Counted from the stretch's first letter, positions 7,087 to 16,687 are shown. The stretch is 64,000 nucleotides of DNA from Nitrospirota bacterium (GCA_015492645.1 WGER01000029.1:3621-67620); one strand, 5' to 3'. The notes: a model not told the origin generated them from the sequence alone. A program made the numbers and translations.

Positions 7087-8157
7087 ATGCGGAGAGGGGA
7101 ATATTCTGTGGTAATTGTAGACGATGAGGAGGTGGTGAGAGATGTACTTGGTGATCTCCTGAGGGATGAGGGGTATGAGGTATATGAGTTCGGGAGGGCA
7201 GAGGATGCCCTGGAATTTATAAAAAACAGAGAAGTCTGCCTCATTATAACTGACATCGTGATGCCAGAGATGGATGGACTCACCCTCCTGAAGAAGGTGC
7301 ACCAGGAGATCAATCCCCAGTTACCAGTGATAGTGATCACCGCCTATCCTGACCTCCAGAGGGCAATTGATGCCCTGAGAGAAGGGGCGTCAGACTTCAT
7401 CATAAAGCCCTTCAAGTCTGACCAGATACTGCATGCTGTCAGAAGGGCGATCACCTACTACGATCTGATACAACTGCAACTCGCCTACGAGGAGCACCTC
7501 GAGAGGACAGTGATGGAGAGAACAAGAGAACTGGAAAAGGCGCTGACATTACTGAGGGAGGCGAGCAATGAGATAACCACCAGGCTGGTAAGTGCCGCAG
7601 AGTACAGAGATGAAGACACTGCAGAACATATTAAGAGGATAAGCGCCTATTGTCAGAGGATAGCAGAGGCCCTTGGCATGTCCAAGGAATTTATAGAGGA
7701 TATAGGTCTTGCCTCCCAGATGCACGATGTGGGAAAGATAGGCATTCCTGACCAGATATTGCTGAAGCCAGGACCCCTCACAAGGGAGGAATTTGAGATC
7801 GCCAAGACCCATACCCTGATAGGATACGATATACTGAAGGATTCTAAGTTTCCTGTGCTCCAGATGGCAGCAAGGATCGCCCTCACCCACCATGAGAAAT
7901 GGGATGGGAGCGGTTATCCTAAGGGATTAAAGGCCGAGGAGATACCGATTGAGGGCAGGATCGTGATCATGGCAGACCAGTATGATGCCCTCAGGTCAAA
8001 GAGGCCCTATAAGGGGCCCCTCAGCCACCAAGATGTCTTCAGGGTAATCACCGAGGGCGATGGCAGGACAATGCCCTATCATTTTGATCCCCAGATACTC
8101 TCTCTCTTCAAGAAGATACACAGGGATTTTGATAGCATATACAATGAGTATCGGTAG
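7087..8157 (+). CDS. Response regulator with HD-GYP c-di-GMP phosphodiesterase domain
   Basis: REC domain ([17 protein letters not shown]) plus HDVGKIGIP and [11 protein letters not shown]. Confidence 0.93.
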
Positions 8158-8815
8158 GAAGGGCTATCTCGGTGGCACATTCAACCCCATCCACTACGGC
8201 CATCTCAGGATGGCTGAGGAGGTTCGGGAGGCCCTGAAATTAGAGAAGGTGGTGTTTATTCCTGCACCTGTACCTCCACTGAAAGACAGAGATATCGCCC
8301 CTCCAGAACTGCGGCTTCAGATGGTCAGGCTGGCGGTAGAGGGGAACCCCTTTTTTGAGGTATCAGACCTGGAGTACCAGAGGACCGGTAAGTCCTATAC
8401 TGTGGATACGATGAGGTTACTGAGACAGATGGAGCCTGAGGTGGAACCTGTCTTTATCCTTGGACTGGATGCCTTTTTAGAGTTACCACAATGGCACAGA
8501 CCTGAGGAGTTGATCAGCCTGTGTGACTTCGCTGTGGTCAGGAGGGCTCAGGCTGGTAAGGAGGCCCTGTTTGACTCGCCTTTTCTGAGCAGTTCAGAAC
8601 CGATTGAGGTTACCAGGGACTACGAGGTCTATCCCCTCCACGGTGAAAGGAGACTCTACTGGGTGAACTGCAGGGTCCTGCAGATATCCGCCTCTGACAT
8701 CCGAAAGAGATTGAGGGAGGGCAGGAGTATTAAATACCTGTTGCCTGAATCTGTTGAATCTTTTATAATTAGACAGGAGGTATATCTGAATAACGAAAGG
8801 GGTGGTCGATCGTAG
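8144..8815 (+). CDS. nadD: Nicotinate-nucleotide adenylyltransferase
   Basis: [24 protein letters not shown]; ATG 8144 chosen over the ORF-track start at 8060. Confidence 0.95.
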
Positions 8816-9186
8816 AAAGTCTTCAAAAGGCTAAACTGATAGCAAGGGCGGCCTCTGAGAAGAAGGCCCTGGACATACAGATCCTTGAGATAAAGAACCT
8901 TACTATAATTGCAGACTATTTTGTCATCTGTTCCGGTGAGACCCTTCCCCAGGTGAGGGCAATAACAGACAATATCGAAATGCAGATGGACAGAAGAGGA
9001 ATTACCCCCCACAGGATAGAGGGTTATACTCTGGGGCAATGGGTGTTAATGGATTATGGAGATGTGATCGTTCATGTCTTTGATGAAGAAAAGAGGAGAT
9101 ACTATGACCTTGAAAGGCTATGGATAGATGCACCAAGGGTAGGTGTTGAGGAAGAGGTTCAGGATAATATGGGTGGGAAAGACTAA
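8809..9186 (+). CDS. rsfS: Ribosome silencing factor RsfS, probable non-canonical ATC start
   Basis: Frame reads ...EKKALDIQILE...IADYFVICSG...QVRAI...WVLMDYGDVIVHVF...RRYYDLERLW; lies between nadD and rlmH; no ATG/GTG/TTG in frame before 8953. Confidence 0.9.
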   Translation: MVESLQKAKLIARAASEKKALDIQILEIKNLTIIADYFVICSGETLPQVRAITDNIEMQMDRRGITPHRIEGYTLGQWVLMDYGDVIVHVFDEEKRRYYDLERLWIDAPRVGVEEEVQDNMGGKD

Positions 9187-9589
9187 GGAGCCCTTTGTGC
9201 AGGAGGGTATAGAGAAATACCTCAAACTCCTTTCACCTCTTGCAGAGGTGGAGATAAAGACGATAAAAGAGGAGAGGGGGAAGGGGGTCAAGGAGGCATT
9301 GAGGAGAGAGGGAAAGAGGATCTGTGAGATGAGCGAAGAGTATATTCTCCTGGATGAGAAGGGGAGGATGATGAACACAATGGAATTTGCAGGATTCATC
9401 TCAGACAGAAGGGATATGGATTTTGTTCTGGGAGGTCCCTATGGGGTGGACGAAACCGTAAGGCAGAAGGCCTCCCTCATACTGTCTCTGTCACCCATGA
9501 CCTTCCCGCATGACCTTGTGAGACTCCTGCTCCTTGAGCAACTCTACAGGGCGGTTACAATACTGAGTGGAAGGAGGTATCACCACTGA
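9143..9589 (+). CDS. rlmH: 23S rRNA pseudouridine-1915 N3-methyltransferase
   Basis: WVGK, LLDEKG, FVLGGPYG, LSPMTFPHDLVRLLLLEQLYRA, C-terminal YHH. Confidence 0.96.
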   Translation: MLRKRFRIIWVGKTKEPFVQEGIEKYLKLLSPLAEVEIKTIKEERGKGVKEALRREGKRICEMSEEYILLDEKGRMMNTMEFAGFISDRRDMDFVLGGPYGVDETVRQKASLILSLSPMTFPHDLVRLLLLEQLYRAVTILSGRRYHH

Positions 9590-10899
9590 TGGCGAGATTT
9601 GTCTTCCTCATGTTGATATTGTATATCCTGGTGATGGCCATCTTTGGATACTTCAACAATACTACGGTGACGGTGGTACTCTTTAAGGACAGGACTGAGG
9701 AACTGCCCCTCTGGTTGCTGGTGTTCCTTTCTTCACTCATTGGAGCGGGTTTCCTCTTTGTGATATATATGGTAAGAGATACCAGAAGGCTCTTCAAGAA
9801 GATGCAGACACAGAAGGCACAGAAGAGGGCAGAAAAACTACAGGGCCTTTATTTAAAGGCATTGAATGAGGTCCATGCAGGAAAGGACGGAAGTGCAAAG
9901 GAGACCCTCTCATCGCTCCTGCAGATAGAACCCGATTATCTTCCAGGACTCAAAGTCCTTGCGGACCTGTCTCTGAAAGAGGGGAGGCTGGATGAGGCTG
10001 AAGAGAACTACAGAAAGGTACTCCAGGTCTCCAGAAATGACAGAGATGCCCTCTATGGACTTGCCTCTGTCAAGTTCAGACAGAAAAAGCCGGAAGAGGC
10101 CCTCTCCCTTATAGACGAGGTTATAAAGGCAGATAAGAGGGACCTCTCTGCCCTTTATTTGAAGAGACAGATTCTTGAGAGTATGAAGAAATGGGACGAG
10201 TTAATAGAACTACAGAGGTCGATCCTCTCCTTGAAAGATGAGCCTGAAGAGAGGCATTATCTGCAGGGCTACCTCTATGAGGCCGGTATGAAGGCGGTAG
10301 AGGAAGAAGACCCGGAGAAGGCGAAGAAACTCTTTAAAGAGGCCCTCAAACAGGACCACCGCTTTGTTCCGGCACATATCGGCCATGCAGAGGCGATGCT
10401 GATCGAGGACAGAGACAGAGATGCGATACATTACCTGGAGAGGGCATTCAGGGAGACCGGTTCCCTTGTGTTTCTTGCCCGGCTGGAGGACCTGCTACTC
10501 AGCCAGGGGGAGCCTTCAAAGATTATCCAGATCTATGAGGAGGCGTTAAGAGAGAAACCTGCAGATACCGCCCTCAGGTTCTTCCTTGCAAAACTCTACT
10601 ACAGACTCCAGATGCTTGACGATGCCCTTGAAACCCTGGACCAGATAGATGACCCGCAGGGTATCCCTGATATTGCCAGATTGAGGGTGGCTATATATCT
10701 ACAGAGGGGTGATTACCAGAAGGCGGCAGAGATGTTAAATTCCATCCTGGATATAAAAAATACCCTGAGGGTACCTTACTGCTGTTCAGAGTGCGGCTGG
10801 ATTCAAACGGAATGGACAGGTAGATGCCCTTTCTGTGGAAAATGGGATACCTTCTTTTTTAATCTTCATGGAAGATGTGAAAGAAAAGTCAGGATCTGA
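9589..10899 (+). CDS. LapA-like membrane domain plus TPR repeats plus LapB-type rubredoxin tail
   Basis: Two N-terminal TM helices with the N...V.V...LP pattern, TPR repeats, C-terminal CSECG...W.GRCPFCGKW. Confidence 0.75.
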   Translation: MARFVFLMLILYILVMAIFGYFNNTTVTVVLFKDRTEELPLWLLVFLSSLIGAGFLFVIYMVRDTRRLFKKMQTQKAQKRAEKLQGLYLKALNEVHAGKDGSAKETLSSLLQIEPDYLPGLKVLADLSLKEGRLDEAEENYRKVLQVSRNDRDALYGLASVKFRQKKPEEALSLIDEVIKADKRDLSALYLKRQILESMKKWDELIELQRSILSLKDEPEERHYLQGYLYEAGMKAVEEEDPEKAKKLFKEALKQDHRFVPAHIGHAEAMLIEDRDRDAIHYLERAFRETGSLVFLARLEDLLLSQGEPSKIIQIYEEALREKPADTALRFFLAKLYYRLQMLDDALETLDQIDDPQGIPDIARLRVAIYLQRGDYQKAAEMLNSILDIKNTLRVPYCCSECGWIQTEWTGRCPFCGKWDTFFFNLHGRCERKVRI

Positions 10900-11539
10900 G
10901 GTATCTACAAGACCCTACAGGGTCGGCAGAGTGGTGCTTGATACGAGTCTGTTTGTGAACCCTGAGGTGAGAAAGTACTTCGGGGAGACACCCACAGAGG
11001 CACTCGAGGGTTTTCTATTCCTGGCCGCTCAGATCCCCATCCTTGAGTTCTATATGCCCCCTTCTATCTTTAAGGAACTCCTTCACTTTGTTGACAAAGA
11101 GAAGATCTCTGGAGACCTCCTCCTGATACTACATCAGAAACCCCCGAGCAAGTATGAGATGTCCTGTCCTGCCTTCCTGCTGTATGAACTTATTGAGGAC
11201 ATCCGTAACAGGATAAATAAAGGCCTGAGGGTGGCAGAGTCGGCAGTGAGGACAGTGGGCAAAAAGAGGGAAGGTGAAGTTATACAGGAACTGAGGAGGA
11301 AATACAGGGAGGCCCTTAGAGAGGGTATTATTGACTCAAAGGAAGATGTGGACCTGATTCTGCTTGCAAAGGAACTGGATGCCCTCCTGGTTACAGCAGA
11401 CCACGGTGTAATAAAATGGGCTGAGAAACTGGGGATAAAATGGCTATTCCCAGAAAAGTTCAGGGAGTATCTGCTCAGTTCTATAAAAAAGGCAAAGCAA
11501 CTCCGTCCCGATTCTCAACCCTTTGAATCTCAGTCGTAG
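10868..11539 (+). CDS. Protein-only RNase P, HARP/Aq_880 family (PIN-like, also annotated as RNA ligase partner protein)
   Basis: VVLDTSLFVNPE, FYMPPSI, LYELIEDIRNRINKGLRVAE, LRRKYREALREGIIDSKEDVDLILLAKELDA, VTADHG closely follow the Aq_880 sequence as I recall it; ATG 10868 or GTG 10835. Confidence 0.9.
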   Translation: MEDVKEKSGSEVSTRPYRVGRVVLDTSLFVNPEVRKYFGETPTEALEGFLFLAAQIPILEFYMPPSIFKELLHFVDKEKISGDLLLILHQKPPSKYEMSCPAFLLYELIEDIRNRINKGLRVAESAVRTVGKKREGEVIQELRRKYREALREGIIDSKEDVDLILLAKELDALLVTADHGVIKWAEKLGIKWLFPEKFREYLLSSIKKAKQLRPDSQPFESQS

Positions 11540-12636
11540 AACCCGTAGCCCTTCAGTTTTCGCCTCAGGTCCTTTGTTCCCTTCTGATATGTCTTTGTGA
11601 ACGTGAGGAGATACTTTGAACCCTTCTTTTCAAGGCTCAGGAGTCTTGGACGTGTTCCTGTCTTCCTCAGATGTTCTATCAGGAGGTCCGCAGTCTCAGG
11701 TCTGTTCACTCTGACCCTGAAGGTCTCGGTTATGGGGTTGTCGTCTAAAACCACCTTCATCGCCTCGAGGAGACCCTCCATAAAGGAATCACCAATTGAT
11801 GCCTTAAGGTCCTCAGAAGGGGCCCTCGATGTCTCCAGAAGTATCGCACCTATTCTTAAAAGTCTCTGGATGTAGAATCCACCTGGTAGTTCAGACATGA
11901 GATGGGCCGTTGCCCTTATATCCCTCACACAGGAACTGAGGGTGACGTATTTTATCTCCTGTCTGCCGTCAAGGGATTTTAAGACCAGACCCTCCCTGCC
12001 CTCTCTGTCCAGTTCTTCTATAATCCTTCTGATAGCATCAGTGTCTCTTATTGTGAAAGGCCCCCATCTCCTGACACTCTTCACCCGGAGGGCATCCAGT
12101 ATCTCATACCTCTTCTGGACCGGCAGACTCCTTCCTGCCCTGTCTTTAATATCGAAGGCGAAAAAGTCGATGTCTTCATCCATATAGGGGATGCCTTCTG
12201 AGTTATAGGGGTTCTCAGGTCCCACTACCTCCACGCAGAGGGTGTAGTCAGGATACCTCTCAAAGAATTCAGCAGGAATGAATTCATTCACCCTGTCCAT
12301 TGTGAAGGGACATATGAAGCCTCCCCTTGTGAAGGCATAGACAGTGTCGCCCACTCTCCGCAGTCTAACGTTGTAGCCATCCATCTTCTCCTCTGCATAA
12401 AATGGTCCAGTGATATTTCTCTCAATCCCCTTTTCAAGGACAAGGACCCTCTTGATCCTCTGAAATCCCTTCAGGAAGCCACCATCCCAGAAGACGGTAC
12501 CTCTCAAGAATTCCCCTGCGTCCTTCTTCAGGCGGTAAAATATCCTCCCCTCAAACTCATAAAAGTCCAGGTTATCCCTGTTTATCCGTTTCTCAGGTAG
12601 AAATCTTTTGAGGTACTCTCCGAAGATGCTCTCCAT
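11530..12636 (-). CDS. ATP-dependent RNA ligase, Rnl3/Pab1020 family
   Basis: Motif I EKMDGYN, TRGGFICPFT, motif III EVVGPENPY, IIIa FFAFDI, IV EGREGLVLK, V IKYVT. Confidence 0.9.
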   Translation of the reverse strand: MESIFGEYLKRFLPEKRINRDNLDFYEFEGRIFYRLKKDAGEFLRGTVFWDGGFLKGFQRIKRVLVLEKGIERNITGPFYAEEKMDGYNVRLRRVGDTVYAFTRGGFICPFTMDRVNEFIPAEFFERYPDYTLCVEVVGPENPYNSEGIPYMDEDIDFFAFDIKDRAGRSLPVQKRYEILDALRVKSVRRWGPFTIRDTDAIRRIIEELDREGREGLVLKSLDGRQEIKYVTLSSCVRDIRATAHLMSELPGGFYIQRLLRIGAILLETSRAPSEDLKASIGDSFMEGLLEAMKVVLDDNPITETFRVRVNRPETADLLIEHLRKTGTRPRLLSLEKKGSKYLLTFTKTYQKGTKDLRRKLKGYGFYD

Positions 12637-15268
12637 ATCTCTGGATTACAAATCTCCTCTCATCTGCCTCTGTCTTGAGATTCCCCCTGAGTCTCTCGTG
12701 GAGAAGGTCCTCCAGTATCTTTGAAAAGATTGGACCAGGGGTGAAACCCATCTCCAGGAGGTCCTTACCTCTGAGGGCAGGCCTCAGAGTTCTCAACTCC
12801 AGCAGGTATCTGGAGATGGCCCTCTCCACCCTCTTATTCTTAGATGTTGCCATTACAAAGAGTACAGTTTCAAGTGGCAGGGGATGGAGGAGTCTGTAAA
12901 TCTCCACAGGGTCATCGGTGGTCATCAGTCTTGAAGACAGAACCTCGTACTGTCCCAGAGACTGGCCTATCAGACGTTGCTGTCTGGGGGGTACGCCGAG
13001 TCTGTCTATGATATCTCTCCTGTCAGAAGGTGGGATTATTGACAGGAGCCCCATCAAATAGAGTGTCTCTTTCTGAACAGGCTCATCCAGAAAGAGGAGG
13101 TCAAACCATGTGAGTACATCCCTTATTGACTGGACTGTCTCCTTCAATGGTTTCTGTGGCTTCAGTGAGGGGTGCAGGGTCTCCAGGAGGCCGTACTGCG
13201 AGAGCCTCTGGATGCTCTGCAGGGGGTCTGTCTCCTTAAATATAAGGGCGAGTTCATCGTAGAGTCTGCTGCCGGTGAGTTTCTTAAACAGGTTCAGCCT
13301 CACAGCAGATCGTATAAGTCTCTCTGTATGTCTGCTGATCTTGAAGCCAAACCTCTCGGCAAACCTCACGGCCCTGAAGGCCCTCGTTGGGTCCTCAACA
13401 AAACTGAGGTTATGCAGGACTCTTATAACCCTCTCTTTGATATCCCTCTGTGCTCCGAAAAAGTCCAGAAGGAGACCGAACTCATCCGGGTTTAATTTGA
13501 TGGCAAGTGTGTTTATGGTAAAGTCTCTCCTGTAAAGGTCCTTCTTTATAGAGGAGGTCTCCACTCTTGGCAGTGCTGCAGGCCTGTCATAGTATTCAGT
13601 CCTTGCGGTGGCGATGTCGATAGTGAAGTCCTCCAGAGGTGCATCGGGATGTTCTGCCTTATTAAATATTATCTTAGCTGTGTTGAATCTCCTGTGTGTG
13701 ACCAGTTTCACACCTTTGAGTGTCCTGCTGAAGGATGTGGCAAAGGCGATGGCATCCCCCTCAATGACTATGTCTATGTCAAGGTTCTTCTGCCCCATCA
13801 GGAGGTCCCTTACAGAGCCTCCAACCAGATAGGCCCTGTAAGTCATCTCATCCGCGTGCCTGCCCACTTTCTCAAGTATCTTAAAGACAAAAGGTGGCAT
13901 CCTCTCTCTCAGCAGATGGGCCACATTTCTGCCAATAGAGGGTCTCTCATGAACCTCTGCCTCGTCCAGCCTCTTCCTCCTGAGAAGTTCATCATAAAGG
14001 GCTCGTAACAGATCTGTCCTGGTTATACACCCTACAACCCTCCCATCCTGTATAACAGGCATGAACCTCTGATTCTTTTCAACCATCGTCCTTTCCACCT
14101 CCTGCAGGGGGGTGTCTGGTGCGGTGGTCTCAGCATCAGTGGTGGTAAATTCCTGGACCTTACTCATTCCGAAACCATGCAGGATCGCCTTCTCAACCAC
14201 CTCTCTGGTGATAATCCCGAAATACCTGCCTGATTTGAGTACAGGCAGGACATTCACACCGTAACGGGTCATCAGGACCTCTGCCTTCTTTATCTCTGTA
14301 TTGTGTGATATCGTGATAACCGGTGAGGTCATTATATCCCTTACCACCTTCTGAGGCCTGATCAGCCCTGGAATCAATTGTAGTATCCTCTCCTCCACCA
14401 ACTCCAGTGGCACACCGCTTACTGTTGCCGAGCCTGCAGAGGGGTGTCCACCACCGTCAAAGTATTTCAGCAACTCTGTTACATCAAACTCCGGCACCCT
14501 GCTCCTGCAGATGATCACCACCTTCCCCTCCATTTCAAGGATCATAACCAGGGCATCAATCTCCTCCATATCCATTATCCTGTGGGCCAATCCTGCTGCA
14601 TCCACCACATACTCTGTCCTTGATGCCTTCACCACCCTGACCCTTATCCCGTACTGGTAGATATCCTGGAAAGATGAGAGGAGTTCGTTCAGGAGTCTGA
14701 TCTCCTCCCTCCCGAGTTCTATCTTTATATACTCTGAGACTATGTTCAGATTTGCTCCCTTTCTCAACAGATAGGCCGCTGCCTGCAGGTCCCTGAAGGT
14801 GGTGGTGGGGAAACGGAATGAGCCGGTCTCCTCGTATATCCCGAGACAGAGTACAGTCGCCTCAAGGGGGCTGATGGGGATCTGTTTCTTTACTATCTCC
14901 TCCACAAAGAGGGTGGCTGTCGCTCCTACCTCCTCTACAACCTCCACTGCTGCCCTTATCCTGTCCTCGGCCGAGGGGTGGTGGTCATAGAGGTGGACAC
15001 TTACACCGGGCATCTTCACCACATCCTCAAAGGGGCCGAGTCTTGAGGCCCTGGAGGTGTCAACCACTATCACCCTCTTTATACTTCCTATGTCAATATC
15101 CGAGGCCCTCAGTATCTGGAAGGGCTGGAACTTGTGGAGAAACTCCCTCACCTTTCTCTCCTCAGAGCCTGGCATCACGCAGACCGCATCTGGATAAATC
15201 TTCTTTGCACCGAGCATTGAAGAGAGGCAGTCAAAGTCGGCATTCAGATGACAGACAATTATATCCAT
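12593..15268 (-). CDS. DHH-DHHA1-CBS-fused class II tRNA nucleotidyltransferase, probably A-adding
   Basis: HLNADFD, YDHH, GGGHPSAG, CBS pair, YLVGGSVRD...DIDI, loop ARTEYY..PAALP, RRDFTIN, EDPTR. Confidence 0.88.
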   Translation of the reverse strand: MDIIVCHLNADFDCLSSMLGAKKIYPDAVCVMPGSEERKVREFLHKFQPFQILRASDIDIGSIKRVIVVDTSRASRLGPFEDVVKMPGVSVHLYDHHPSAEDRIRAAVEVVEEVGATATLFVEEIVKKQIPISPLEATVLCLGIYEETGSFRFPTTTFRDLQAAAYLLRKGANLNIVSEYIKIELGREEIRLLNELLSSFQDIYQYGIRVRVVKASRTEYVVDAAGLAHRIMDMEEIDALVMILEMEGKVVIICRSRVPEFDVTELLKYFDGGGHPSAGSATVSGVPLELVEERILQLIPGLIRPQKVVRDIMTSPVITISHNTEIKKAEVLMTRYGVNVLPVLKSGRYFGIITREVVEKAILHGFGMSKVQEFTTTDAETTAPDTPLQEVERTMVEKNQRFMPVIQDGRVVGCITRTDLLRALYDELLRRKRLDEAEVHERPSIGRNVAHLLRERMPPFVFKILEKVGRHADEMTYRAYLVGGSVRDLLMGQKNLDIDIVIEGDAIAFATSFSRTLKGVKLVTHRRFNTAKIIFNKAEHPDAPLEDFTIDIATARTEYYDRPAALPRVETSSIKKDLYRRDFTINTLAIKLNPDEFGLLLDFFGAQRDIKERVIRVLHNLSFVEDPTRAFRAVRFAERFGFKISRHTERLIRSAVRLNLFKKLTGSRLYDELALIFKETDPLQSIQRLSQYGLLETLHPSLKPQKPLKETVQSIRDVLTWFDLLFLDEPVQKETLYLMGLLSIIPPSDRRDIIDRLGVPPRQQRLIGQSLGQYEVLSSRLMTTDDPVEIYRLLHPLPLETVLFVMATSKNKRVERAISRYLLELRTLRPALRGKDLLEMGFTPGPIFSKILEDLLHERLRGNLKTEADERRFVIQRYGEHLRRVPQKIST

Positions 15269-15274
15269 AGGGAT

Positions 15275-16687
15275 TTACTTGGCCGGCCTCTCTGACACTA
15301 CAATCTTGTCTCTGCCCATCTGTTTGGCCCTGAACAGGGCATTATCTGCAAGGGTTATCAATCCATCAGAGTCTTTCACAGGGTGTACAGGCCAGCAGGC
15401 TACTCCCATGCTCACAGTGATCCTTTCCTTTCTGAGTATCTTGAAGGAGTGTCTCTTCACATACTGAGCCAGACGTTCTGCCTCCTTCAGTGCCCCGTCG
15501 AGGGATGTCTGGGGCAGAAGGAGGATGAACTCCTCACCTCCATATCTTGCAAAGACATCACTTCTGCGTGTGTGGCGTCTGACGAGCTGGGCAAATTCTC
15601 TCAAGACCTGATCTCCCACCCTGTGGCCATACCGGTCATTTATGTTCTTGAAGAGATCTATATCCATCATGATGCAACTGAGGGGATAGCCGTATCTCTG
15701 AGCCCTGCTGAACTCCTCCTCCAGCCTGTGATAAAAGTATCTGATGTTGTAGATGCCTGTCAGGTAGTCAGTTATGGCAAGTTTCTGGAGTCGTGTCTTC
15801 TCATTCTCTATCTTCTCAAAGAGGAAGGCATTATAGAGCACATTCGCTGCAATGTTGGCCACTATATTGCAGAGCCTCAGTTCCCTCTCATCAAACCCCT
15901 TGTGTGTCCTTGATGTCCTCAGAAAGAGGGTGCCTATCACCTCATCTCTGTAGATGATTGGTATAACCGCTATCGCCTTTATGCCTATTGGTGCTATAAA
16001 TCTCTGTACAGAACGCATAAGAGGCTCCTGCATCGCATCCTGAATCACCACGGGGCGCTTGTTCTTGAGGGCCTCCCTTATCTCAGGATATTTCCTGATA
16101 TCTATCCTGATATTGGTTATACTGGGGTCCTCAAAAGAGGAGACTACATAGGCATATCTCCGATCACCTAATCCTATACTCAGGATTGAACAACGGGTTA
16201 CGTCTATCATCTCTGAGATCTTTTTCACTATGTAGTAGAGTATCTTCCTTGGGTTAAGTGTGGAGGTGATCAGGTATGTAAGTTCAACAACGGCCTCCAG
16301 GTCTTTCCTCGCCTCATACAGACACCTGAACCAGCTCTTCCTCTCACGGGCTATCCTTATCTTTAGATCCAGGTCCTCTTCATGGAAGGGGGCTATCAGG
16401 TAGTAGTCTATATTATAGTTTATTACTGCATTTAGTGCCCTCGGGATGTTCTCCATGATGAGGGCAATCTTTGGTATATCGATCTCAATCTCTCTGAACT
16501 TTTCATTCAGTAGAGTGGCCTCTACAAGGAGGAGTTCATAGGAATCACTCTGTAAGTTCCTCACAAGACTCTTCAGAGTGGTTACATACTGTGGAGTATA
16601 GTTTCTCTGTTGAAAAAAGTCCTCAAGGAAGTTTCTCAACTTTAAAGACTTTTCATAGACCAATATATCCCTTTCGCCCTGTGTCAT
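15275..16687 (-). CDS. Diguanylate cyclase (degenerate REC, GAF, GGDEF)
   Basis: TDYLTGIYN, DIDLFKNINDRYGHRVGD, I-site RRSD and GGEEF active site. Confidence 0.93.
   Translation of the reverse strand: MTQGERDILVYEKSLKLRNFLEDFFQQRNYTPQYVTTLKSLVRNLQSDSYELLLVEATLLNEKFREIEIDIPKIALIMENIPRALNAVINYNIDYYLIAPFHEEDLDLKIRIARERKSWFRCLYEARKDLEAVVELTYLITSTLNPRKILYYIVKKISEMIDVTRCSILSIGLGDRRYAYVVSSFEDPSITNIRIDIRKYPEIREALKNKRPVVIQDAMQEPLMRSVQRFIAPIGIKAIAVIPIIYRDEVIGTLFLRTSRTHKGFDERELRLCNIVANIAANVLYNAFLFEKIENEKTRLQKLAITDYLTGIYNIRYFYHRLEEEFSRAQRYGYPLSCIMMDIDLFKNINDRYGHRVGDQVLREFAQLVRRHTRRSDVFARYGGEEFILLLPQTSLDGALKEAERLAQYVKRHSFKILRKERITVSMGVACWPVHPVKDSDGLITLADNALFRAKQMGRDKIVVSERPAK

Follow-up and report, generated by a model that had tools for sequence, protein, structure and literature searches.

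The question raised by a 64,000-nucleotide (nt) stretch of DNA from a Nitrospirota bacterium (contig C29, positions 3621-67620; hereafter the window) is why three genes for enzymes of RNA ends lie overlapped in a single locus. The gene for HARP, a protein-only RNase P, converges on the gene for an ATP-dependent RNA ligase of the Rnl3 (Pab1020) type, whose start in turn overlaps the end of a gene for a tRNA nucleotidyltransferase. A model's earlier reading of the window from its sequence alone proposed that the three enzymes make up a bacterial tRNA module, and made that proposal depend on the genes remaining adjacent in related genomes. The analysis described here favors a different explanation, with a probability of roughly 0.7: in a Thermodesulfovibrionales-type Nitrospirota from a hydrothermal vent, two housekeeping transcription units would converge and meet at the locus, and the HARP-Rnl3 pair is the only conserved association within it. 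This pair is already known, and the new element is the family-specific synteny of the nucleotidyltransferase. The window's genome (G000) is a 2.43-Mb assembly of 91 contigs that is scored as 100% complete. Feature positions are those of the window, and G, C and L numbers denote genomes, contigs and ligase loci.

The HARP gene (PIN_5/TIGR03875) occupies positions 10835-11539 on the plus strand and encodes 234 amino acids (aa) from a GTG start; an alternative ATG start at 10868 corresponds to the in-frame Met12 of this longest open reading frame (ORF). The convergent ligase gene (11530-12636, minus strand, 368 aa) meets it tail to tail with an overlap of 10 nt (11530-11539). The nucleotidyltransferase gene (12593-15268, minus strand, 891 aa) is co-directional with the ligase gene, and its end covers the ligase start by 44 nt (12593-12636). 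Both overlaps are exactly those given in the sequence-only reading. In the related loci L004, L005 and L008, tblastn matches place the nucleotidyltransferase-ligase overlap at 41 nt, and aligned homologues that share the ligase start lend it further support. In close relatives all three ORFs are retained at 51-89% identity, and they are therefore taken to be genes and not chance ORFs.

The conservation of the HARP-ligase arrangement is evaluated by using an alignment of 15 ligases as the query, with one genome per species and with the best 80 of 384 loci kept. According to the record titles, these 80 loci come from Nitrospirota/Thermodesulfovibrionales metagenome-assembled genomes (MAGs), from anammox Planctomycetota and Thermococci, from a single Aquificaceae MAG and from a small number of MAGs labeled as Deltaproteobacteria or Thermodesulfobacteriota. 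The ligase homologues include one from the named species Dissulfurispira thermophila. In a tblastn search with the window's proteins, 63 of the 80 loci have HARP as the next gene after the ligase, convergent with it, and these loci extend over Nitrospirota, anammox Planctomycetota, Thermococci, Aquificaceae and MAGs labeled as Deltaproteobacteria; of the 17 loci lacking HARP, four continue for less than 60 nt beyond the ligase. ORF clustering recovers 61 of the pairs; the 3' ends overlap in 31 of these, and in 49 they overlap or lie no more than 50 nt apart. When the 828 ORFs neighboring the ligase in the 80 loci are clustered, HARP is the only neighbor shared across phyla. A set of other neighbors was rejected as clade-specific and unrelated to RNA ends, namely argG, dprA, topA, FxsA, anthranilate synthase, an aminotransferase and an aldo-keto reductase, along with PCMT, a DNA methylase, a sigma-54 regulator, a biotin carboxylase, L10e and an MFS transporter.

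The tail-to-tail HARP-Rnl3 pair is thus a conserved association that has already been published. Seshadri and Gopalan (mBio 2025; PMC12153264) report an Rnl3 ligase in 665 of 751 HARP genomes and co-localization of the two genes, 'typically bidirectional', in 127 of 164 bacterial cases, with Thermodesulfovibrionales named among the orders. Their pair involves the same families (PF08745/TIGR03875 and PF18330/TIGR01209) and the same bidirectional, abutting layout as the pair described here. By their definition (both genes within 5 kb, typically bidirectional), the window's genes are co-localized, in this instance convergently with the 10-nt overlap. Two differences are apparent. A tRNA nucleotidyltransferase neighbor is never mentioned in the main text of that study, whose Table S1 lies outside this comparison and may list neighbors; and anammox Planctomycetota, which are numerous among the present loci, are not listed in that main text. 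These anammox loci (L039-L083) show that both Scalindua- and Brocadia-type genomes carry the pair.

The place of the third gene is evaluated in an order-wide sample of 81 genomes (G000-G080) drawn evenly from 13 families. The ligase is found in 20 of these genomes, in 19 of them over the profile cut-off, and all 19 are HARP-positive. The DHH-CBS nucleotidyltransferase is present in 80 of the 81 genomes regardless of whether HARP or the ligase is present. Ligase and nucleotidyltransferase are neighbors in all five ligase-bearing genomes of the window's family (G000, G008, G044 and G077, as well as G021, where they adjoin across a contig break). Elsewhere in the order, not one of the 14 genomes with a ligase has the two genes within 10 kb of each other: 11 carry them on separate contigs, the distance is 11.6 kb in G053 and 1.57 Mb in G006, and G074 has no nucleotidyltransferase match. 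The collection of 80 ligase loci agrees with this result. The nucleotidyltransferase is upstream of the ligase in nine loci (L004-L011 and L065), all from the closest clade and with ligase identities of at least 53%. No such gene is detected upstream by tblastn in 70 other loci, four of which have less than about 310 nt of upstream sequence, and the sequence of one further locus from the closest clade (L012) is cut at the ligase start. On the basis of this contrast in distribution (80 versus 20 of 81 genomes), the absence of adjacency outside the family (0/14) and its restriction to nine of 80 loci, the nucleotidyltransferase is not part of a conserved module. The synteny anticipated by the sequence-only reading therefore holds for HARP and the ligase, which stay together across phyla, and breaks down for the nucleotidyltransferase beyond one family; a three-enzyme module conserved beyond close relatives is not found, and the proposed bacterial tRNA module falls short of the adjacency on which it was made to depend.

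Several genomes of the order suggest how the arrangement may have come about. In G055 (L104, contig C11) the nadD-rsfS-rlmH-lapB-HARP run converges with nucleotidyltransferase-GGDEF, with the ligase missing and a gap of about 170 nt left between the two sides. The ligase match in G053 (C10:6886-8074) is split by an internal TGA stop, and in G033 and G066 the two halves of the locus are apart. As the split gene in G053 and the clean loss in G055 show, the ligase decays within the order. Of the eight family genomes checked, six keep the GGDEF and nucleotidyltransferase genes side by side, as do additional loci of this clade, and LapB and HARP are neighbors in 20 of the 80 ligase loci. Read most simply, a rearrangement would have been fixed in the family's ancestor and inherited since, with the ligase as a dispensable passenger.

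HARP enzymes cleave the 5' leaders of tRNA precursors and leave a 5'-phosphate. The window's protein matches PIN_5 (PF08745) with an E-value of 8.4e-60 and 202 bits (cut-off 27) and TIGR03875, 'RNA ligase partner', with 202 bits (cut-off 95.3). It aligns with the 'RNA-free ribonuclease P' of PDB entry 7e8k at 229 bits, and it resembles Aq880 and the other solved HARPs (7f3e, 8kd9, 7og5, 7e8k and 7e8j) over the whole domain, with E-values from 7e-67 to 1.5e-43. Aspartates D36, D167, D171 and D189 are present and are identical in the alignments to 7e8k and 7e8j. Mapped through the alignment offsets to 8kd9, they correspond to the Aq880 catalytic aspartates, given in PMC8266387 as D7, D138, D142 and D161.

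Searches of the 91-contig draft for RNase P RNA of the bacterial class A/B and archaeal types (RF00010, RF00011 and RF00373) and a profile search for RnpA (PF00825) return nothing, the outcome expected for the rnpB/rnpA check that the sequence-only reading had proposed. The two nearest relatives, G008 and G021, likewise lack rnpB. Because neither component is found in a genome scored as complete, HARP is the sole recognizable RNase P of G000. In this respect the window's genome resembles the Aquificaceae. Across the order, rnpB is found in 28 and HARP in 56 of the 81 genomes, with 49 carrying HARP only, 21 rnpB only, seven both and four neither, so that the two are almost mutually exclusive. 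Five of the seven genomes with both RNase P types belong to the window's family, whose remaining three genomes, from two genera, have HARP only; rnpB is lost in the window's genus and in one other genus. HARP-only genera within Nitrospirae are already described in PMC6380272 and PMC8266387. With genomes that have both RNase P types alongside HARP-only ones, the family forms a natural series in which to study how the ribozyme was replaced.

These distributions also bear on what the ligase does for HARP. Thirty-seven of the 56 HARP genomes in the order lack the ligase, including all 14 genomes of two HARP-only families, which argues against an obligatory ligase role in the RNase P function of HARP. 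The resulting frequency of the ligase among HARP genomes (19/56) is well below the 89% reported in PMC12153264. The same study collects several ideas for the pair: repair, toxin-antitoxin action, maturation of C/D-box RNA and 5'-adenylation. A toxin-antitoxin-like or antagonistic pair that cuts and reseals RNA would agree with HARP being a PIN-domain nuclease and with the tight tail-to-tail linkage of the genes across phyla. This idea is rejected here as highly improbable: HARP is an essential housekeeping enzyme where it is the sole RNase P, the ligase is often absent from HARP genomes, the genes are convergent and not co-transcribed, and T. kodakarensis from which the ligase has been knocked out grows without a defect (PMC12153264).

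The ligase is a predicted Rnl3 enzyme with intact motifs. It scores 293 bits against TIGR01209 (cut-off 137), 79 bits against RNA_ligase (PF09414) and 68 bits against Lig_C (PF18330), and so possesses the nucleotidyltransferase domain together with the C-terminal domain of Pab1020. Residues K84 (within EEKMDG), E215, G216, K220 and K229 are invariant in the 15 aligned ligases, and the motifs EGLVLK and KYVT are also found; K84 is the motif I (KxDG) lysine, and the others belong to the downstream ligase motifs. Full-length likeness extends to the solved structures 8uce, 2vug (PAB1020), 5d1o (MthRnl) and 3qwu, with E-values from 1.9e-76 to 3.8e-39, among which 8uce is deposited as an ATP-dependent DNA ligase and 3qwu as a DNA ligase. 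Rnl3 enzymes join 5'-phosphate to 3'-OH ends of single-stranded RNA and have circularizing activity, and the window's protein would be expected to act likewise. The in vivo substrates established for archaeal Rnl3 are circular C/D box sRNAs in Thermococcales; we know of no bacterial counterpart to these, nor of any other substrate for a bacterial Rnl3.

The nucleotidyltransferase protein combines DHH, DHHA1, two CBS, PolyA_pol and PolyA_pol_RNAbd domains as identified with Pfam. Its NrnA-like DHH-DHHA1 phosphoesterase domain (residues 1-300; 14369-15268) matches the NrnA model NF053633 at 3.7e-16 and has four of four DHH-family motifs, including DxD at residues 11-13, DHH at 95-97 and GGGH at 272-275. 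The CBS pair follows as two Pfam stretches (residues 306-428; 13985-14353), and the class II tRNA nucleotidyltransferase module with its PolyA_pol and PolyA_pol_RNAbd matches (residues about 445-891; 12593-13936) carries GGSVRD at 483, DIDIV at 497, RRDFTIN at 580 and EDPTR at 625. The catalytic motifs are therefore intact in all three enzymes, from the HARP aspartates through ligase K84 to the DHH and class II motifs, and the searches with TIGR03875, TIGR01209, PolyA_pol and DHH all bear out the family assignments of the sequence-only reading, whose background statements are also correct.

The specificity of this protein is approached by comparison with the split CC- and A-adding enzymes of A. 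aeolicus. The model NF041569, 'A-adding tRNA nucleotidyltransferase', aligns end to end with the window's protein (positions 1-879 of 880) with a score of 839 bits; its cut-off of 1440 is reached by none of the 81 genomes of the order. Among solved structures, the T. maritima CCA-adding enzyme (PDB 3h37) scores 279 bits over residues 445-869, ahead of 4wby (227 bits) and 1vfg (223 bits). The latter two are deposited as poly A polymerase and are what we take to be the A. aeolicus A-adding enzyme. The likeness to the A. aeolicus system thus lies in the long DHH-CBS-nucleotidyltransferase architecture and in the presence of a short second class II enzyme in G000, and the difference lies in the lower model score and the closer approach to 3h37 than to 4wby. 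The second enzyme is a 385-aa ORF on contig C47 with a split PolyA_pol match and a short segment before RRDFTIN. The sequence-only reading had suggested looking for a separate CC-adding enzyme; this short class II enzyme is a candidate, and it may be CC-adding, in line with literature on a loop deletion. The 891-aa enzyme is probably A-adding and concerned with repair of the CCA end.

The tRNA genes of the genome indicate what work remains for such enzymes. ARAGORN identifies 48 tRNA genes in G000, covering all 20 amino acids and selenocysteine, plus a transfer-messenger RNA (tmRNA). CCA is genomically encoded at the 3' end of all 47 evaluated tRNA genes and of the tmRNA, and the nucleotidyltransferases are therefore enzymes that repair eroded ends in this organism and not maturation enzymes. 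The situation differs from that of Hydrogenobacter thermophilus, in which about one-fifth of the tRNA genes encode CCA and HARP is roughly 10-fold slower on CCA-bearing precursors (PMC12153264): in G000, a HARP-only genome, every evaluated gene encodes it. The canonical genes given by ARAGORN also lead to rejection of permuted or split tRNA genes as a reason for the ligase. Position -1 is an A in 25 of 46 tRNA genes, compared with a background of 0.255 (binomial p = 5e-5), and a G:C pair between positions -1 and 73 is possible in only five of 46. A bias in the same direction occurs in A. aeolicus, where PMC12439589 gives A(-1) for 38 of 44 tRNA genes and reads it as co-evolution of precursor tRNA and HARP; the bias is weaker in G000, to which the present count is confined. 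A tRNA-Cys(GCA) gene at C19:14446-14541 is predicted to be 96 nt long, far longer than the 76-nt tRNA-Cys on C29, which may point to an extended variable arm or to an atypical tRNA.

With the enzymes described, the proposal that they constitute a module for tRNA end processing, repair or circularization can be weighed. HARP would supply the 5'-phosphate, the nucleotidyltransferase a 3'-OH at C, CC or CCA, and Rnl3 would join them; the outcome could be circular tRNAs, serving for storage or for protection from heat, or the resealing of broken tRNAs. The ligase does share a predicted operon and a conserved overlap with the nucleotidyltransferase in every ligase-bearing genome of the family, HARP overlaps it from the other side, and Rnl3 has tRNA-related neighbors in other lineages. 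Whole circular tRNAs whose junctions contain non-templated C, CC or CCA, exactly the predicted product, are described for H. salinarum, H. volcanii and H. mediterranei in PMC12558985. Set against these points are the confinement of the nucleotidyltransferase adjacency to one family, the pairing of a universal nucleotidyltransferase with a patchy and, in G055, cleanly lost ligase, and the many HARP genomes of the order that have no ligase. In addition, charging is impossible for a tRNA closed via its CCA end. No TIGR01209 match is found in the H. volcanii genome, used as a control, and Rnl3 is therefore not implicated in the published tRNA circles. The idea that both neighbors generate ligase-ready ends also needs curtailing, with CCA encoded in the evaluated genes and the nucleotidyltransferase consequently not the normal maker of the 3'-OH. 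A dedicated tRNA module is accordingly regarded as unlikely, and the case for Rnl3 acting on tRNA ends is a weak one.

The explanation by two convergent housekeeping units has its own difficulties, which are gathered here as points that weigh against it. For the 11 outside genomes with the two genes on different contigs, a ligase at a contig end (as in G013 and G022) leaves adjacency across the break possible. The nucleotidyltransferase-ligase overlap of 41-44 nt is kept across genera of the family, and such gene overlaps often mark functionally linked products. The absence of rnpB from G000 relies on a draft assembly in 91 contigs, and the A-adding specificity is not established, given the sub-threshold NF041569 score and a CCA-adding enzyme as the best solved relative. 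Finally, in eight Nitrospirota loci the upstream neighbor of the ligase, in divergent orientation, is a class Ic Glu/Gln tRNA synthetase, and in nine loci, all from Thermococci, the gene immediately upstream encodes a tRNA_bind-domain protein. In view of these tRNA-related neighbors in other lineages, the ligase may have some link to tRNA.

The Thermococci loci (L047-L059, L068 and L091-L096) also draw attention to a different kind of neighbor. The tRNA_bind protein directly upstream of their Rnl3 gene has 244 aa and combines an alpha-helical domain with the tRNA_bind domain. It is the last member of a block that runs from a DHH-DHHA1 gene through a small zinc-ribbon protein and an unassigned 360-aa protein, and this block remains close to the ligase also in loci without an adjacent HARP. 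DHH-DHHA1 phosphoesterases occur near Rnl3 in three lineages. The domain is fused to the nucleotidyltransferase in the nine loci of the window's clade; in 20 of 23 anammox-type loci the next gene upstream, in divergent orientation, is a TrkA_N-DHH-DHHA1 gene, although Scalindua-type and Brocadia-type loci are unlike in their outer flanks; and a 325-aa DHH-DHHA1 gene lies three genes upstream in seven of 15 Thermococci loci. Twenty further Thermococci genomes were picked from high-scoring places on large contigs among 81 genomes with a match; DHH-DHHA1 is within 8 kb of the ligase in six of them, and no DHH gene is found within about 9 kb in the other 14. Each of the Nitrospirota and anammox genomes checked has three DHH genes, and Thermococcus has five to six, from which the chance of immediate DHH-ligase adjacency is estimated at about 0.2-0.3% per lineage. 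No DHH gene is found within 6 kb of the ligase in the loci of other Nitrospirota, of Aquificaceae or of genomes labeled Deltaproteobacteria. A literature search returned no report that links Rnl3 to a DHH protein or, in titles and abstracts, to a tRNA nucleotidyltransferase.

This recurrence, which is new and was noticed post hoc, is a weak lead to a system in which a DHH phosphoesterase is the partner of Rnl3. In the window this partner would be the N-terminal domain of the nucleotidyltransferase protein, and it would heal or trim RNA ends, or clear small by-products, before or after sealing, in a heal-and-seal pathway spread over several phyla. The scarcity of DHH genes per genome lends the three-lineage pattern some force. 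The pattern is nevertheless absent from most lineages, the fusion of DHH to the nucleotidyltransferase is universal in the order whether or not a ligase is present, and the DHH proteins of the three lineages resemble one another only at the generic level of the family (E-values from 1e-14 to 3e-5). A role of this kind is considered distinctly unlikely. A bolder combination of the two ideas, in which the Rnl3 of this HARP-only family joins the 5'-phosphate left by HARP to a C, CC or CCA 3'-OH kept by the co-translated nucleotidyltransferase to give whole-tRNA circles like those of haloarchaea, with DHH as the end-healing part of a cross-domain heal-and-seal system, is quite improbable. Should tRNA circles or DHH-assisted healing and sealing be true, they would provide the first substrate for the HARP-Rnl3 pair.

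Under the favored explanation of two meeting housekeeping units, the locus would operate as follows. The nadD-rsfS-rlmH-lapB-HARP unit ends in the sole recognizable RNase P, which would cut tRNA 5' leaders and leave 5'-phosphates. The opposing unit would begin with the GGDEF gene and continue with the DHH-CBS tRNA nucleotidyltransferase, which may restore lost 3'-terminal residues, most likely A76, together with the short CC-adding-type enzyme encoded on another contig. Rnl3 would be an accessory last member, translationally coupled to the end of the nucleotidyltransferase and able to seal the 5'-phosphate to the 3'-OH of single-stranded RNA. The nucleotidyltransferase would stand beside the HARP-Rnl3 pair through a rearrangement inherited within the family, and not as part of a dedicated three-enzyme module. 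For the role of HARP's ligase partner the locus provides a clean example from bacteria, in which HARP is the sole recognizable RNase P, all evaluated tRNA genes encode CCA, and the ligase appears coupled to an enzyme for tRNA 3'-end repair.

The genes on either side complete the two units. On the plus strand, nadD, rsfS, rlmH (a SPOUT methyltransferase) and a LapB-like gene with TPR and zinc-ribbon features (8060-10899) form an abutting or overlapping housekeeping run that ends in HARP. On the minus strand, a GAF-GGDEF diguanylate cyclase gene (15275-16687) opens the GGDEF-nucleotidyltransferase-ligase unit, and 6 nt separate its end from the start of the nucleotidyltransferase gene. Co-transcription of these three genes is likely, with translational coupling suggested by the 44-nt overlap, and a weak promoter and terminator scan finds no terminator-like site on the minus strand within 11530-16687. 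The scan's overall counts (13 terminator-like sites versus 9.4 +/- 3.6 in shuffled sequence, and 20 promoter-like sites versus 11.3 +/- 4.0) define no unit boundary. In an Rfam search of the window, no family reaches its gathering score. Among sequencing runs, the stretch occurs in four DNA runs from one study, and no RNA run containing it is listed.

Two minor observations concern these flanks. Genes related to cyclic-di-GMP lie on both sides of the locus, with a response regulator that has an HD-type phosphohydrolase domain (HD_5, HD) at 7087-8157 on the plus strand and the GAF-GGDEF gene on the minus strand; the cyclase gene immediately precedes the part of the nucleotidyltransferase gene that encodes the NrnA-like DHH domain. 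In rsfS (8818-9186, plus strand), the frame is open and conserved upstream of the first ATG, GTG or TTG codon, which occurs at 8953. Relatives align from residue 1 or 2 of the frame that opens at 8818 with 53-72% identity, and the true start of rsfS is therefore either non-canonical or located further upstream.

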